From contig JBNPEG010000058.1 of NCBI GenBank assembly GCA_051117555.1, positions 1-31,023 of the forward strand: a DNA stretch of 31,023 nucleotides, given 5' to 3'. The DNA is from Elainellaceae cyanobacterium. Lineage in GTDB: Bacteria > Cyanobacteriota > Cyanobacteriia > CAZCXK01. How positions within the stretch are numbered: position 1 is the first letter of the stretch; each line of letters begins with the position of its first letter. Shown piece by piece: positions 135 through 6,768 of the stretch. The position numbers and the translations under genes are program-made. The notes under the pieces are model-generated. The model was not told the origin of the DNA. It worked only from the letters and a program-made list of their open reading frames with translations, and did not search any database.

Positions 135-3100
135 TTAATTTGCACAGCGGGCGTCTGGAGCATCGGCGATCGCCCGACAGAGATTAATGATGTATTGATC
201 ATCAGCAGGCGGTTCGCTATAAAACTCACTCCGAATTGCCTCAGCCGTGACAAATCGTTGTGCAATCGGACCTGCAGGCGCATATTGCAAACCTACGTCA
301 TACCCCCATCGACGGTCTGGTGGGGTGTAATACTTGATTTGCTCTCCACCAGATGGCATAGGGTTGCTGACAGCAGACTCCCATGCGTTTTGGCTAAAAG
401 GACCTGTTGCGTAGTTGCTAAAGTTAAGCTGCAAAAACGATCCAGAGATAATCAAGGTATCCCAGTTTTCGATAAACCGTGGGAAGTTGTGCAATCCGCC
501 ATACGCCTGGTTGGGACGAGACGGCACCAATCCGCTAATGATAATAGCATTGACTCGATTGGTTCCTGTCCCAATTAGGGGCTTATTCCCATCGCTAAAA
601 TCGCGATATCTGTCATTAGACGACGCATATTCTGATCCATCTGCTTTGATGGGGTTACCATTTCGAGTTAGCGCAATGGGTGACCCCTCGTCGTAAGGAT
701 TTTCATGATGCCACCGATCTTTATCTGCGTTGCTACTGCCACGCACCGTCGAAGTCAGCGGTAGGGTGCTGTTGGCGTTATTAGGATTCGGTCTATTTTG
801 GTTGAGGAATGATGTACGTTTGTCGCTACCGCTTCCACAGCCATAACGAACCATTAATGCATTATCCAGCGTGGCATTATTGCCCTGGTTAAAGGTTTCA
901 AAGCCATCCGCAATGCTGCCATCGCAGAAATCACTTGAGAGAATTGTGACTGCATCTGCCAAGATTTCAGAGGGTCGCCAGCGGTCGGTCGCAGGGCGAG
1001 CAAATCGTTCGTCTAAATTGTTTCGGCTGTAAAAATTACTGAAGTTATCAATATTCAACAGCGTTCGAAATTCCTCAAGGCGACAGGTGGGATTGTCGTT
1101 GCACGCATAGGTTTGATGGAGATTAAAGTCGCCCATGATATAGACTGGATTGTCTGAGATGAGCGATAGTCCACGTCCTTCATCGCCTGCGCGATCGAGT
1201 TGCTTACCGTTGCGAAGCCGGAATCCATAGGGGCGGCGATCTGGATCAGCATAATAATCGACGGGTTTGGGGCTAATCTTCCGAGTTTCACTAACAGGTG
1301 GGTCGGTCGAGCTCAGGGCATCGCCCACTGCATTCATGCGACAGGCTGCTACGGTTTGAATGCCGTTGTCATTCCCGCAGGTTGACCAGTTTGCGCCTGA
1401 ACCGGGCGATCGCACAATTGCATCCTCCCGAACTGCATCTTCTCGGAACGCATAGACTAAACCGCTATTGGGCAGCCAGTGATCTCCACCGGTCAAGTTC
1501 TTAGTATTATTGCGCATCAACTCGAGGTCCAAATCCAATGTCCGAACTGTCATCATTTCCCGACCATTCATAAATGCCGCATCTTTAAAGGGAATTCGAA
1601 CGAGATTTCCAGGTGGAACCGTTCCCGCGACCGCATCCGTGCATTGACTTTCAACACATTCTTTGATCAGCACTTTATCGTTACGGTTAGGTGTTGTGCC
1701 ATTGCCAGCAGACTCAAAGGGAAGTTTCCATTCATCAGGAGATAGGCGGCGGGGTTTAACTGCAATCGTTTCCAAAACTGCGAGGTTGTTGATATCAATG
1801 GCTTTATATCGAGTAGCGCCCGGATTGACGGATGCAATGTACGTGTTAAACGAGCCGCGAGAATCGGGGACCTTTTCTGCGTGATCATCTGATGAATCAA
1901 CGGTTCCGGCAGCGTCTCCATTGGTATTGCCTGGAAATAATGAATATAGAATCGGAAATTTGGGTGAAGCCCCACACAGATATCTAAGTCCATCTAAGTG
2001 TCCAGTAGCTCCTCCAGAAGCACCATTAACTCCTGCAAAATTATTTTGGCAGTTGGGGCTCTTTCCATTTCTGAATCCAAACACGCGATCGCGCTCGATC
2101 TGCTCTTTGGTGATCACCAGCTTAGTGATTGAAACCAGTTTATTTCTCGCTTCTCTCTGTCCAGTCGGTCCATTATCACGCCACTTCTCAAAAGCACGCA
2201 CGAAAGCTTGCGCATCCGAACTGGCCGGTACGCTAGGCAAGTCCGCTGGACCGCCGGGTTGAGTACCTGCCATTTGCTTAATCCTTAATCCAACTTCATT
2301 GAGTTGGTTGTTGGGTGGCGCATAGTTATAACCTCCAACCGTTCCCAGATTGTAGGCCAGCATTCCAAGAGTACAGGAAGCCGTGTGAAGCGTCGTTTTA
2401 TCAGCAGGGCTCAACGCATAGTAATCTGTACCACTATCGATCTTGTTGAGCACAAGGCGAAGCGTTGAGAAGTCTCCCCACATTGACATCCAGGGATAGG
2501 AATGAACCGTACCGTCCTGTTGGGGCTCAAAGGTGGGTGCCCCTCCTTTAGGATCGCCAGCAAAGTACGCTAAGTTTCTCAGCGCCATGCCCAACGGCGC
2601 GGTTGCAGAAATCTTGTCTTTGAACTCACTCGGCGAAGCAGCAGGGGGGGTATATTCCCAGCCATTGGTGCCTCGTCCAGTGAAAAAGTCGCTCACCACA
2701 ATTGTTGGGAAACTTGTGGTGCTGAGTCCTCCTTCACCAGCAGCAAGTAAATTCTCAAAGGTAGAACTGCGATCTAGCGTAGTAGCCGTACCTGGGTGAG
2801 CGGTTGTAGCGAGACAGGCGATCGGAAAATCTCGCGATTCATCTCCCGCAGCAGCGCCACTATAGGCAGAATGATAAACCGCAGTGGCTTGAACGGCGGC
2901 TAGATTATCTCGCAAAGTCCTTCGTTGACGTGCTTCATGGCAACGATTGCTGTTATTTGTGGTGCAGTTGCCGCTCCAAGGTAGCAATGGATCAGTCGTG
3001 TTAAATGGGGGATTCGTCGGATATAGCGACGCACCACTGGCGCTGAGCCCATTCCAACCCACATAGTTTCCGAGTTCGAGGCGCTGTCCAACAATCAGTC

Positions 3101-4760
3101 GCAGCCCATCCGCGCGCGCCCGACGTTCCCAATACCCATCTAACCCAACGTTGACACTCTCTTCACCCGTTGGCGGCGCGTTTCGAGTCAGTTCCTCGTC
3201 GCTGATGGGGCTATCCCCACCATTCATTTGGTTACCTGCAATTTCAGTCCCAATGGGGACTGGAATTGGAATACCCTTATACCTGGGTTTAGGCCCAAAG
3301 CGATTGTCCGCGCGGAAGGTATCGTCTACATACGGAGCCTGCTCAGACCGGTTGAAGATACGACCATCCGTGACCATCTTCCGAGCAGACCAATTTCCCG
3401 CTCGATTGGCAGCAGGATTTGCGACACTACGAGCGACAGATTTATCTTCGGTTAAAAGTTTGATGGGGTCGAGCGCATAGTCAGCAGGCTTAGGATTGTT
3501 GCCCCCGACCGAATCACTATCTCGTGCCAACTTAACGTTGTCATCGCCATTCGTGATGGGTGGGCTAGCGTGGAGGTGGAACCGAGACACATCACCGTTA
3601 TCGAATGAGTTGTTGCCAGTCTTACCACTTAGAATCTGCCCTTGAAACGCGGGAACGTCATTGTCAGGATCGGCAATGACATCAGAAACGGTAATTTCAG
3701 ATGCTTCACGGGTATAGAGGCACGACGCTGGTGAGCTAATCAGATAGGCTGTAAAACTGCCATTGCCGACAATGAGGTTGCCCTCTGTATGCATCGCTCC
3801 GTTCCAGTTAAACTGCGGTCCCGGAAAAATCTCCAGGTCATTCCGAAACCAAGCTCCCCATTTGTTGCCTCGGTTAACCTGACGATCTTGATGGAACTCC
3901 AGCGATGAAACTGTTCCGTTGCGGTTCTCAGGAAGCACAAAGGCATTGACCTGAAAGTTTTTTCTTAACACTGAGGTGTTCGCTTCGTCTTGAAACCAAC
4001 CCTGCTCAACAGGCGCAGCAGCATTATTTCGAAGTTGGCAAATCGTGTTGAGTTGCGTGGTGTTGCTGAGTGGCCCGTGACGCACTTGAAGGACTCTAGC
4101 CCGATTGGAAACAGAGGTGTCATCGGCCTTTTTCATATCTGCTGGGTTCGCTGGCGTCTGGAAGAGGATAGAATACGCGACCGTCGCGTCATCCGCCCCG
4201 TCTTCATCGGTATCAACCGGATACCGCCAAGCGTTGTCTAATTGCCCATCGTTATTAATGTCAATTCGTGCTTCACCAGGAAAGGTATAAGGATCAGTGG
4301 GGCGACTATTTGCCCCCTGAATTTCGTGGCGCTGAACAGTAATACCGTTATGGGTCTGACCATCGTTAATCAACATGCCGTAGAGAACCGTCTCCGCCGG
4401 AATGCCGCCCGGATATCGAGGATCTCGTTGGCTGTTGAAGAGATATTCAAGTTTTGATTTGGCTCGGTCAATCGTGGGAGTTGCGGCGTTATAGATGACG
4501 CGTTCTTGGCGTTCACCGACGGTTTGAGCCGTTCGGTTGTAGGTGCGTAATGTGATTGCACCTACTGTTAGGGTAACGACCAAGAGCAATAAAACCGTCG
4601 TCGGTAGGATAAAACCTGAATTCGAAAGAATAGATTGCCGAGCGATCGCCAGATTCCCCCTGAGCATCCAAAAGACTAGGCTTTTGGTGATGCTACGTGC
4701 GAGCCTAGCGACCCCATGTATCATGTCTTTGATTATCTGAGCAAGCGTTCGATTTGACAT
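135..4760 (-). CDS. hpsA: Hormogonium polysaccharide biosynthesis protein HpsA (large PilX-like protein linked to gliding motility)
   Basis: 1541-aa ORF with a prepilin-like 'SGFILPTTVLLLLVVTL' N-terminus, 'NKWGAWFRNDLEIFPG', 'GYWERRARADGLRLIVGQRLELG' and C-terminal 'YGGLHNFPRFIENW...RRWGYDVGL', motifs recognised from cyanobacterial HpsA. Confidence 0.85.
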   Translation of the reverse strand: MSNRTLAQIIKDMIHGVARLARSITKSLVFWMLRGNLAIARQSILSNSGFILPTTVLLLLVVTLTVGAITLRTYNRTAQTVGERQERVIYNAATPTIDRAKSKLEYLFNSQRDPRYPGGIPAETVLYGMLINDGQTHNGITVQRHEIQGANSRPTDPYTFPGEARIDINNDGQLDNAWRYPVDTDEDGADDATVAYSILFQTPANPADMKKADDTSVSNRARVLQVRHGPLSNTTQLNTICQLRNNAAAPVEQGWFQDEANTSVLRKNFQVNAFVLPENRNGTVSSLEFHQDRQVNRGNKWGAWFRNDLEIFPGPQFNWNGAMHTEGNLIVGNGSFTAYLISSPASCLYTREASEITVSDVIADPDNDVPAFQGQILSGKTGNNSFDNGDVSRFHLHASPPITNGDDNVKLARDSDSVGGNNPKPADYALDPIKLLTEDKSVARSVANPAANRAGNWSARKMVTDGRIFNRSEQAPYVDDTFRADNRFGPKPRYKGIPIPVPIGTEIAGNQMNGGDSPISDEELTRNAPPTGEESVNVGLDGYWERRARADGLRLIVGQRLELGNYVGWNGLSASGASLYPTNPPFNTTDPLLPWSGNCTTNNSNRCHEARQRRTLRDNLAAVQATAVYHSAYSGAAAGDESRDFPIACLATTAHPGTATTLDRSSTFENLLAAGEGGLSTTSFPTIVVSDFFTGRGTNGWEYTPPAASPSEFKDKISATAPLGMALRNLAYFAGDPKGGAPTFEPQQDGTVHSYPWMSMWGDFSTLRLVLNKIDSGTDYYALSPADKTTLHTASCTLGMLAYNLGTVGGYNYAPPNNQLNEVGLRIKQMAGTQPGGPADLPSVPASSDAQAFVRAFEKWRDNGPTGQREARNKLVSITKLVITKEQIERDRVFGFRNGKSPNCQNNFAGVNGASGGATGHLDGLRYLCGASPKFPILYSLFPGNTNGDAAGTVDSSDDHAEKVPDSRGSFNTYIASVNPGATRYKAIDINNLAVLETIAVKPRRLSPDEWKLPFESAGNGTTPNRNDKVLIKECVESQCTDAVAGTVPPGNLVRIPFKDAAFMNGREMMTVRTLDLDLELMRNNTKNLTGGDHWLPNSGLVYAFREDAVREDAIVRSPGSGANWSTCGNDNGIQTVAACRMNAVGDALSSTDPPVSETRKISPKPVDYYADPDRRPYGFRLRNGKQLDRAGDEGRGLSLISDNPVYIMGDFNLHQTYACNDNPTCRLEEFRTLLNIDNFSNFYSRNNLDERFARPATDRWRPSEILADAVTILSSDFCDGSIADGFETFNQGNNATLDNALMVRYGCGSGSDKRTSFLNQNRPNPNNANSTLPLTSTVRGSSNADKDRWHHENPYDEGSPIALTRNGNPIKADGSEYASSNDRYRDFSDGNKPLIGTGTNRVNAIIISGLVPSRPNQAYGGLHNFPRFIENWDTLIISGSFLQLNFSNYATGPFSQNAWESAVSNPMPSGGEQIKYYTPPDRRWGYDVGLQYAPAGPIAQRFVTAEAIRSEFYSEPPADDQYIINLCRAIADAPDARCAN

Positions 4761-5212: not shown

Positions 5213-5980
5213 ATGGCGGGACATAGTAAGTGGGCCAATATTAAGCGACAAAAAGCGAGAGTTGATGCCGTTAAAGGAAAGACCTTTGCCAAGCTCTCGC
5301 GCCAAATTATTGTGGCGGCTCGGAGCGGTATTCCCGATCCAGAGGGGAATTTTCAGCTTCGTACTGCGATTGAGAAGGCAAAGGCGGCTGGGATTCCAAA
5401 TGACAATATCGAACGGGCGATCGCCAAAGGTGCAGGCACGTTTGGCAATGAGGGCGAGGCGCTAGAAGATATTCGCTATGAGGGATATGGTCCGGGTGGC
5501 GTGGCGATTCTCATCGAAGCCTTGACCGATAACCGAAATCGAACAGCAGCTGATCTGCGATCTGCATTCGGCAAAAACGGCGGGAATTTGGGTGAAACTG
5601 GATGCGTCAGTTGGATGTTTGACCAGAAAGGAGTGGTTTCAGTCACAGGAACGATTCACGAAGACGAATTGCTAGAAGCCTCCCTGGAAGGAGGTGCAGA
5701 ATCGTATGACCTGGTTGAAATCGATGACATGCCAGGCGCGGAGATCGTCACAGCCGCGACTAACTTGGAGACACTCAATCAAACCTTGCAGGATGCCGGG
5801 TATGTTATCAATCAAGCTGAGCTGCGCTGGATTCCTAGCAATACGATTGAGGTGACGGAGCCAGACCAGGCGCGATCGCTCCTTAAGTTAATGGATGCAC
5901 TCGAAGAACTTGACGATGTTCAGAATGTAACCGCCAACTTTGATATGGCAGATGATCTCATGGCTCTCAGCATGATTTAG
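5213..5980 (+). CDS. yebC: YebC/PmpR family protein
   Basis: Diagnostic '[11 protein letters not shown]', 'YEGYGPGG', 'TDNRNRT' and 'DDVQNV'. Confidence 0.97.
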
Positions 5981-5983
5981 ATC

Positions 5984-6038
5984 AAAGAAAACCCTAGCCC
6001 AGGCAGGCTAGGGAATCATTTCAGGGTACATTTACCAT
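5984..6038 (-). ncRNA. NsiR1-like small RNA, copy 1 (variant; ends approximate)
   Basis: Minus strand reads ATGGTAAATGTACCCTGAA-ATGATT-CCCTAGCC-TGCCTG-GGCTAGGG-TTTTCTTT: a conserved core plus an 8-bp terminator stem (5992-6013) and U-tract. The core matches copy 2 at 19/21 positions. Confidence 0.6.
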
Positions 6039-6065
6039 TCCTTGATTCTGAATCCATGAGGCATA

Positions 6066-6071
6066 TCAGGA
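6066..6071 (-). promoter_or_regulatory. DIF1-like element (TCCTGA) of sRNA copy 1
   Basis: One mismatch to TCCGGA. Same 46-nt offset from the core as in copy 2, and next to the same ATGCCTC motif. Confidence 0.5.
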
Positions 6072-6197
6072 TAAATTAGCTCGGAATATGCCGAAAAATG
6101 GAGTAATTAAGCGAAAAATCGTAGACTATGATGGATTTTGCTCAATTAATACGTAATTCTGCTGGTAAAATCGATGACCTTGATTGTAGAAACAGCC

Positions 6198-6249
6198 AAA
6201 AAAATCCCCAGCACGAGGCCGGGGAGTGAATTCAGGGTGCATCTACCAT
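6198..6249 (-). ncRNA. NsiR1-like small RNA, copy 2 (ends approximate)
   Basis: Minus strand reads ATGGTAGATGCACCCTGAA-TTCAC-TCCCCGGC-CTCGT-GCTGGGGA-TTTTTTT. The 5' core matches the Nostoc NsiR1 core as I recall it. Terminator stem at 6205-6225, followed by seven U. Confidence 0.72.
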
Positions 6250-6276
6250 TCACTTCTACAGGTGATAGAGGCATCA

Positions 6277-6282
6277 TCCGGA
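6277..6282 (-). promoter_or_regulatory. DIF1 motif TCCGGA at about -35 of sRNA copy 2
   Basis: Perfect TCCGGA about 30-35 nt upstream of the predicted 5' end, the arrangement known for HetR-dependent DIF1 promoters such as nsiR1. Confidence 0.65.
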
Positions 6283-6325
6283 CTGTAGGAGAATTTCCTC
6301 CTGATTTTGGGCTGAATTGATGACT

Positions 6326-6583
6326 TCAATCTCCTGCTGCGGCCTGTTCGTCATTCAAAATTTTGTCTTTTGAGTCATCCCAGTAGGCACTGCATGTCCA
6401 TACCTCGCGATCGCCCTTATTTTCGACTGACCATTGATAAATCGCAGATTTAGGCTCAATCCCGATTTCTAGTAACTTAGCGCCCATGTAGTACTCCATT
6501 TTGCGCTTGGTCATCTCTTTGACACTGGGAGGTAGATTTGTTTCGATAGTCCGATTCAAATGAGCCTGAGTATGTTTTGCCAT
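6326..6583 (-). CDS. Small hypothetical protein (85 aa)
   Basis: ATG at 6583 with a GAGGTG Shine-Dalgarno upstream. Protein-like sequence (MEYYMGAKL..GI.PKSAIY.W) that looks like a conserved cyanobacterial hypothetical. Confidence 0.75.
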   Translation of the reverse strand: MAKHTQAHLNRTIETNLPPSVKEMTKRKMEYYMGAKLLEIGIEPKSAIYQWSVENKGDREVWTCSAYWDDSKDKILNDEQAAAGD

Positions 6584-6768
6584 GCAGTTCACCTCGATGT
6601 CGTTTCACCAATACATCCAGCAGAGGGATTCATTCTCTTATATTACGAGGATTTATTGACGGGGTTGGCTTGATGCTGACCGGCGATCGCGTCACAATAA
6701 CGGTATGTAGAACTACCAATGCTTCTAATTTCGTTTGAGAACTCTGTTTGATTATTTGATGTGAAATT

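Follow-up and report, generated by a model that had tools for sequence, protein, structure and literature searches.

Two predicted NsiR1-family small RNA genes, each with its own DIF1-type promoter and terminator, in an Elainellaceae cyanobacterium

The gap between yebC and a small gene of no known family in an Elainellaceae cyanobacterium very probably contains two separate genes that encode NsiR1-family small RNAs (sRNAs) of about 52-55 nt, here called A and B, each with its own DIF1-type promoter and its own intrinsic terminator. They lie on the minus strand at positions 5984-6282 of a 31,023-nt stretch (contig JBNPEG010000058.1, positions 1 to 31,023, of GenBank assembly GCA_051117555.1), and this whole stretch is referred to below as the window. 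In the arrangement that we favor, HetR would turn on hetZ upon nitrogen step-down and the HetZ sigma factor would then read the A and B promoters. Each unit would be transcribed from its own promoter (TCCGGA or TCCTGA at -35, with G-n-A 16 nt on) and each transcript would end at its own intrinsic terminator, after which the RNAs may pair in trans through their conserved, mostly single-stranded 5' part, as "sibling" RNAs of partly different specificity. We infer the transcription, the inducing signal and the trans action of A and B, as well as the recognition of their promoters by HetZ in this organism, from comparison with known systems.

Both units resemble the NsiR1 (RF02399) of Nostoc/Anabaena sp. 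PCC 7120, an RNA of about 55-60 nt with a UGGUAGAUGCACCCUGA 5' core and several slightly divergent siblings. When the whole window was scanned against Rfam 15 at gathering thresholds (39 bits for RF02399), three matches were returned, namely one tRNA and NsiR1 twice. Unit A was matched over 6197-6248 at 51.3 bits (E 1.7e-07) and unit B over 5984-6037 at 40.3 bits (E 8.8e-05; Infernal, all of Rfam), in both cases across model positions 1-60, and neither score changed in a search of the whole genome. A first-pass annotation of this DNA, made from the letters alone, had proposed NsiR1 identity and named the Rfam model as its check; both units pass it at full length. The predicted folds also match the family structure of a short 5' hairpin, a single-stranded stretch and a terminator. 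For A, this is a 3-bp 5' hairpin, single-stranded CUGAAUUCAC and an 8-bp terminator (-15.8 kcal/mol), and for B a 4-bp 5' hairpin and a 9-bp terminator (-19.2 kcal/mol, z -3.3). Unit A carries the NsiR1 core and its short 5' hairpin exactly. Unit B has two substitutions in the core (G to A and C to U), both in the hairpin loop, and the second adds an A-U pair that lengthens the predicted stem. An intrinsic terminator ends both units, giving predicted RNAs of 52-55 nt against about 60 nt for the known RNA. At the level of sequence, A and B are confirmed as genuine, separately equipped NsiR1 genes and as new members of a known family.

The two units share one build and repeat with a period of 211 bp. 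In unit A, the -35 element TCCGGA (6277-6282; DIF1 or sigma-HetZ type, same hexamer and offset in the orthologues of three relatives) is followed by ATGCCTC (6274-6268), by a -10-like tetramer TGTA 16 nt past the hexamer (6257-6260), by the 21-nt core (6251-6231) and by a terminator hairpin of 8 pairs, 6 of them G-C (6205-6225), with UUUUUUU behind it and a T-run that reaches 6197. The RNA (6197-6249, from the Rfam match and the promoter consensus) would be about 52-53 nt long, with a predicted start at 6249-6247. Unit B has TCCTGA, a G-to-T variant of DIF1, as its -35 element (6066-6071), then ATGCCTC (6064-6058), AGAA 16 nt past the hexamer (6046-6049), the 21-nt core (6040-6020) and a terminator hairpin of 9 pairs, again 6 of them G-C (5992-6013), whose end is 12 nt away from the stop of yebC, a convergent gene; the T-run reaches 5984. 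The predicted RNA (5984-6038, Rfam match, start at 6038-6036) would measure about 54-55 nt and carries the variant core UGGUAAAUGUACC. A terminator scan of 5800-6700 found 4 sites, compared with 0.5 expected from shuffles.

This layout agrees in most respects with the first-pass annotation, which had described two minus-strand units 211 bp apart, each running from hexamer through ATGCCTC, core and hairpin to a T-run. Its count of 19 identical positions out of 21 between the cores is correct (the differences are G6243 versus A6032 and C6239 versus T6028), and so is its distance of 46 nt from the hexamer to the left edge of the core, provided that plus-strand coordinates are used (6277-6231 and 6066-6020); counted along the RNA strand, the start of the hexamer precedes the U of UGGUA by 34 nt in both units. 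The DIF1 hexamer TCCGGA holds for unit A, whereas TCCTGA, which differs by one base, stands at this offset in unit B. ATGCCTC is indeed shared within the window, but the B orthologues of G001, G002 and G003 (the relatives described below) lack it, and we rejected it as a shared functional element for that reason.

In Nostoc, the DIF motif is TCCGGA around -35, and a 70-nt nsiR1 promoter alone is reported to be sufficient for expression (PMC4030482). Each nsiR1 copy of Nostoc 7120 has its own DIF1 promoter, according to the available text of a further report (PMC9045159), and the present units are like those copies in pairing a promoter of this type near -35 with an intrinsic terminator of their own. 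The first-pass annotation had taken the TCCGGA promoters to be HetR-dependent. Their DIF1 type stands, but the sigma factor HetZ is now reported as the reader of TCCGGA-N16-17-TGNA-N7-9-transcription start, with HetR further upstream as the activator of hetZ itself, and T-35, G-32 and A-30 of such promoters are described as replaceable (PMC13342950). Unit A fits this consensus exactly (TCCGGA, 16 nt, TGTA, then 7-9 nt to 6249-6247). In this it is like the sigma-HetZ promoters of hetR, patS, patU and sigC in Anabaena 7120, in which TCCGGA is followed by G-n-A 16-17 nt on and by the start 7-9 nt later, as given in the accessible parts of PMC13342950 and PMC7377430. Unit B and most other NsiR1 promoters have AGAA or AGTA at this place, unlike the TGNA of those Anabaena promoters.

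To place these promoters more widely, the core was scanned across 185,579 species genomes, which gave at least 124 loci; copies were grouped by record title and the full hexamer was sought at -34 to -36. Among the matches listed, to which all counts in this paragraph refer, and counting copies with sufficient upstream sequence, a full hexamer precedes 76 of the 87 that come from named non-Nostocales cyanobacteria (48 TCCGGA and 28 TCCTGA), 51 of 73 from named Nostocales, where 20 more are one base off, and 45 of 48 in an unnamed or ambiguous group. None of four chance matches outside the cyanobacteria has it. The pattern nGnA stands 16-17 nt past the hexamer in 169 of 172 NsiR1 promoters, compared with about 12% by chance. 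Strict TGNA is found in only 11 of the 172, and AGAA is the commonest tetramer at the -10-like place.

The host genome (6.06 Mb in 256 contigs, 100% complete) yielded seven matches to RF02399. Six of them, spread over five contigs, exceed the gathering score, and the seventh, on contig C201, reaches 31.4 bits. A hairpin and T-run follow each of the seven, and TCC(G/T)GA stands 34 nt before the U of UGGUA in all six above-threshold copies, three times as TCCGGA and three times as TCCTGA. The seventh, sub-threshold copy uses a different promoter. A search of the 6.06 Mb for the 16-nt core with up to 2 mismatches gave eight sites, of which seven are the Infernal matches and the eighth is a chance match without a terminator. 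The core being scattered over unrelated loci without promoter and terminator, the outcome named beforehand as speaking against the sRNA genes, is thus not what the genome holds. The copies adjoin unrelated housekeeping genes (an ABC exporter, rlmN and cobM, hisF, a permease), and A and B are the only adjacent pair among the six.

Relatives allowed the history of the pair to be followed, two of them from the genus of the host (G001 and G002) and one from a second genus of the family (G003). In all three, the A and B orthologues are separate loci, and the distance between them is about 1.5-1.9 kb wherever both fall on a single contig. G002 and G003 keep the order seen here, with the 88-aa gene and yebC as outer neighbors. 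What separates the orthologues in G002, in G003 and, across two contigs, in G001 is a pair of genes, one TetR-like and the other encoding about 140 aa with a weak match to an af470-like monooxygenase; both genes are absent here. In BLAST against G002, window 6400-6190 corresponds to L150 549-760 and window 6117-5900 to L150 2567-2803, and about 1.8 kb of G002 (L150 761-2566) is represented by 72 nt here, with an approximate junction at 6183-6190. The homology of these remaining nucleotides (6189-6118) was judged by eye. Since the second genus also has both intervening genes, the simpler reading is that the proximity of A and B is a by-product of the loss of two genes in this lineage. The units would then be a pair by adjacency, as first described, but not one that arose by tandem duplication.

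The same comparison separates what is kept from what is free to change. Between the window and G003, unit A retains 6 of 6 hexamer positions, 6 of 16 spacer positions and 23 of the first 24 nt of the RNA; for unit B, the corresponding figures are 6 of 6, 3 of 16 and 24 of 24, and its first 24 nt are also identical in G002. Conservation of hexamer and RNA 5' part across a diverged spacer supports the proposal that each unit has a promoter and a terminator of its own. Across 19 aligned family copies the 5' hairpin is invariant; compensatory changes affect 4 predicted pairs out of 10, and these four belong to the terminator.

This footprint also bears on the most durable of the alternative explanations, which we nevertheless consider improbable, namely that the units are NsiR1-derived terminator or 3'-untranslated-region modules of their neighbors (the 88-aa gene for A and yebC for B) and that the hexamers are leftovers. 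The positions of the units lend it some credit, as A begins 44 nt past the stop of the 88-aa open reading frame (ORF) on the same strand with no intervening terminator, the B hairpin is 12 nt from the yebC stop, and other copies, such as those on C48 and C189, are also tight against gene ends. However, hexamer and RNA 5' part are kept between genera while the spacer is not, and the hexamer offset is fixed in all six copies here as well as in most of 208 cyanobacterial copies among the matches listed. A terminator role requires neither an invariant 17-nt 5' core nor a -35 element, and the 70-nt nsiR1 promoter drives expression by itself in Nostoc (PMC4030482).

Somewhat less probable still, and very unlikely in our view, is that only unit A functions, unit B being a copy in decay whose core and -35 hexamer have mutated. 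Its score of 40.3 bits versus 51.3, its two core substitutions and its TCCTGA in place of TCCGGA would be expected of decay. Yet the two substitutions and the TCCTGA hexamer are present in every B orthologue (G001, G002 and G003), the first 24 nt, substitutions included, are identical in G002 and G003 next to a spacer that retains 3 of 16 positions, and the terminator, altered between the genera, still reads by eye as a hairpin with a T-run. TCCTGA is no oddity of B either, being found in 3 of 3 members of the C111-type orthologue group and in 28 of 87 non-Nostocales copies among the matches listed. Because its variant core and hexamer are conserved across two genera, B is an old, maintained sibling rather than a decaying copy. 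That the conserved sequence instead codes for a small protein, on the grounds that an ATG-started 43-aa ORF (6146-6277, minus strand) spans unit A, is hardly credible, as its ATG falls inside the -35 region, the C48 copy read by eye in the same frame has TGA directly after the core, the C1 copy has TAA two codons before the core with no start between, and the core is invariant at all codon positions while stem changes are compensatory, which is RNA-type conservation.

The host carries hetR and nifHDK. Its hetZ (G000:C161:21123-22217, where G000 is this genome) scores 662.7 bits on NF037963 against a cut-off of 550, and a HetZ-related paralogue scores 510 bits on the same model; the hetZ query was first identified in a Nostoc genome and validated on Nostoc HetZ. 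The HetP family (NF037966) has no member in this 100%-complete genome, nor in G002, G003 or a Microcoleus genome, while the same search gave 4 matches in Nostoc and 2 in Calothrix as positive controls. There is also no HepA orthologue, the best match reaching 542 bits against a cut-off of 725 (NF045513), although this marker is not clean. A Phormidesmis genome (G044) passes the HepA model at 999 bits in a genus not known for heterocysts, so the name "heterocyst formation" given to NF045513 overstates its specificity. Very probably, then, the host makes no heterocysts, and because it lacks HetP-family genes, the heterocyst-specific NsiR1 expression published for Nostoc, which depends on HetR and NtcA and is induced on nitrogen step-down, cannot be transferred to it as such. 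We also noted a TCCGGA at G000:C248:67323, about 245 nt upstream of the hetR start and followed 16 nt later by CGTA; a search of C248:65801-68800, which takes in about 1.9 kb upstream of the hetR match and 0.6 kb downstream of it, gave no ORF with the patX-type motif RG[ST]GR.

The distribution of NsiR1 was followed in 41 genomes from 27 GTDB families, the lists being compared by eye. NsiR1 is above its gathering score in 28 of them, and the same 28 have a HetZ-family match (E<=1e-30; 24 above the HetZ cut-off), while the other 13 have neither. HetP-family genes are confined to 3 of the 41, and 25 of the 28 NsiR1-positive genomes are without heterocyst commitment genes.

In Nostoc, the validated targets of NsiR1 are the hetF 5' untranslated region, to which it is antisense, as well as alr3234, which is hetP-like, and the RNA is reported to act by base pairing (PMC9045159). 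No CHAT-domain or HetF-type gene lies near, or antisense to, any NsiR1 copy of the host among the 28 CHAT-domain matches of its genome; the sole CHAT match that shares a contig with a copy is a broken one, 26 kb from the C48 copy. The tandem array near hetF is likewise not seen here, where six copies lie on five contigs of an assembly in 256 pieces; such an array is a trait of Nostocales genome organization rather than of the RNA. Separately, 17 of the 28 CHAT-domain matches fall on contig C13, which suggests a large cluster of caspase or HetF-type protease genes. The top matches of a genome-wide duplex scan with the A and B 5' parts are the opposite strands of the nsiR1 genes themselves, and the rest lie mostly within ORFs. 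The HetZ-related paralogue was set aside as a target on account of duplexes with large internal loops.

One further candidate, the hetZ mRNA, looked stronger at the outset and was also rejected. Against the 691 nt upstream of hetZ, the 17-nt core formed duplexes of <= -20 kcal/mol in 9 of 20 genomes in the sense orientation and in 1 of 20 in antisense (paired Wilcoxon p 0.0004; 0.0014 on the means of 17 families), and the region of the host itself lay at the 0.6th percentile among 1151 real upstream regions. Alignment and a motif scan, however, showed that 16 of the 20 regions contain a conserved gene running divergently from hetZ. In the host this gene encodes 158 aa of no known family (L167:912-1388 on G000:C161, minus strand) with a conserved N-terminus (..DQQIQ.LI..APQDG..), and 6 of the 9 strong sites sit on the codons of this N-terminal motif, on the other strand. 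The G014 site (446-467) is below the motif codons (480-524) and probably within the same divergent ORF, which leaves clearly intergenic sites only in G012 and G037. The motif codons resemble the NsiR1 core and produced a false target signal, so that the signal upstream of hetZ is largely the syntenic coding sequence of its neighbor. It appears plausible that the A and B cores give different targets, because the variant core of B is conserved.

Several points weigh against the reading of A and B as HetZ-driven, trans-acting sibling genes. The score of unit B is only 1.3 bits above the gathering score, and its promoter departs from the sigma-HetZ consensus twice, with T at -32, a position reported to be replaceable (PMC13342950), and with AGAA for TGNA. 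The predicted fold of A is little better than that of shuffled sequences (z -1.5), and the start sites of both RNAs are predictions from the promoter consensus. Both validated Nostoc targets are without a counterpart, as the host has no HetP-family gene and no CHAT gene near the copies. No convincing translation-start site emerged from the genome-wide duplex scan with the A and B 5' parts, and the duplexes with hetR and nifH were unremarkable. Finally, because the sampled genomes are related, the co-occurrence of NsiR1 and hetZ shows a shared lineage pattern and not dependence. With these points taken into account, we still regard two separate NsiR1-family genes as very likely.

The sub-threshold copy belongs to a second, different kind of NsiR1-related RNA. 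Contig C201 holds a tandem pair of such units, 244 bp apart, between gatB and ffh (G000:C201:97074-97408; L012 6074-6409), with HetR-box-type palindromes of the form GGGG-N5-CCCC at G000:C201:97074-97089 and 97318-97333. The downstream unit, which is the 31.4-bit Rfam match, has no TCCGGA and is preceded by GGGGGTGTCACCCCTC and a TAATAT -10 element; the other unit, which lies 244 bp upstream and is more diverged, shows GAGGGGTGTCACCCCT and CATAAT. These palindromes match the HetR recognition site at hetP, quoted as GAGGGGTCTAACCCCTC with a requirement for GGG-N5-CCC (PMC4192349). HetR-box-like palindromes elsewhere in the host genome did not lead to hetZ or hetP. Of 401 genomes of the class, 125 contain the A-variant core and none contains the reversed control pattern. 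Copies from other genomes show the same HetR-box-type build of palindrome, TATACT-like -10 element and AGUAGAUGCACCCUGAUG...GGGAGAG hairpin. From 30 loci fetched, 25 of 29 usable copies, representing 8 of 9 families, have the palindrome and none has the DIF1 hexamer. In Rfam, this RNA gives only a sub-threshold match to NsiR1, and we found no account of the class in the literature as far as its available text extends.

These observations invite a wider interpretation, which we offer tentatively and regard as possible but doubtful. NsiR1 may be not a heterocyst invention but a core output of an older HetR/sigma-HetZ circuit of filamentous cyanobacteria, with two sibling RNA classes sharing one seed, namely the HetZ-read DIF1 copies, to which A and B would belong, with B as a fixed second specificity, and a HetR-box class switched on by HetR directly. 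Such an arrangement might provide early and late sRNA layers in this organism, with targets other than hetP and hetF.

The surroundings of the pair are in part conserved. Convergent with unit B is yebC (5213-5980, plus strand; TACO1/YebC family, PF01709 and PF20772), and upstream of unit A, on the same strand, is an ORF of no known family (6326-6592, minus strand) that is kept beside unit A in G001, G002 and G003. It had been described as an 85-aa gene, which is right from its first ATG; from GTG it measures 88 aa. It has no Pfam or NCBIfam match, and the terminator scan of 5800-6700 placed no terminator between it and unit A. Elsewhere in the window, a 1541-aa ORF (135-4760, minus strand) matches HpsA (NF038301, 638.6 bits, cut-off 400), a hormogonium polysaccharide protein, as would suit a cyanobacterium that is filamentous and motile. 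At a minimum of 7 intergenic sites in the genome, on C10, C47, C51, C139, C193, C211 and C250, we also noticed a dispersed repeat of about 29 nt (..TAGGATGGGTATAGCCCTTCGGGCATG).

The published picture of NsiR1 is drawn from heterocyst formers. The RNA has been verified in at least 19 heterocyst-forming strains (PMC6596454) and is described as standing in tandem near hetF in all heterocystous genomes (PMC4030482). In Nostoc, 12 copies form a single tandem array upstream of hetF, whereas the host has six on five contigs with none near a hetF-type gene; the HetP family is the validated class of trans targets in Nostoc, whereas the host has no such gene; and half of the host NsiR1 promoters carry TCCTGA, unlike those of Nostoc NsiR1. 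A close parallel is the 57-nt "RNA162" of Limnospira indica PCC 8005, likewise an NsiR1-type RNA in a filamentous cyanobacterium with hetR and no heterocysts (PMC8400943). Limnospira indica PCC 8005, however, is a non-diazotroph in which RNA162 was annotated in passing, whereas the host is a diazotroph, and the available text of that report contains no promoter, copy-number or comparative analysis of the RNA. More generally, A and B are like the multicopy sibling sRNAs of other bacteria, which are near-identical genes with some diverged seeds and possibly separate targets (PMC9045159), but unlike those, B, the divergent sibling, is fixed in two genera, and so is its variant hexamer. In the available text of the literature on NsiR1 and on non-heterocystous or hetZ-bearing cyanobacteria, we found no account of NsiR1 in non-heterocystous lineages with hetZ. 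What sets the present case apart from the published picture is its host, the arrangement of the copies in the genome, a variant sibling that is conserved, and the lack of the known targets.

What the pair offers is a full gene module of hexamer, core and terminator in a lineage with hetR, hetZ and nitrogenase but without heterocyst commitment genes. This gives a handle on a question raised earlier (PMC11298460), namely the role of the HetR/HetZ circuit in filamentous cyanobacteria that form no heterocysts, as NsiR1 would be an output of this circuit that is small, strongly conserved and easy to assay. The conserved sibling B, with a hexamer type of its own, would also make a direct test of target diversification possible.

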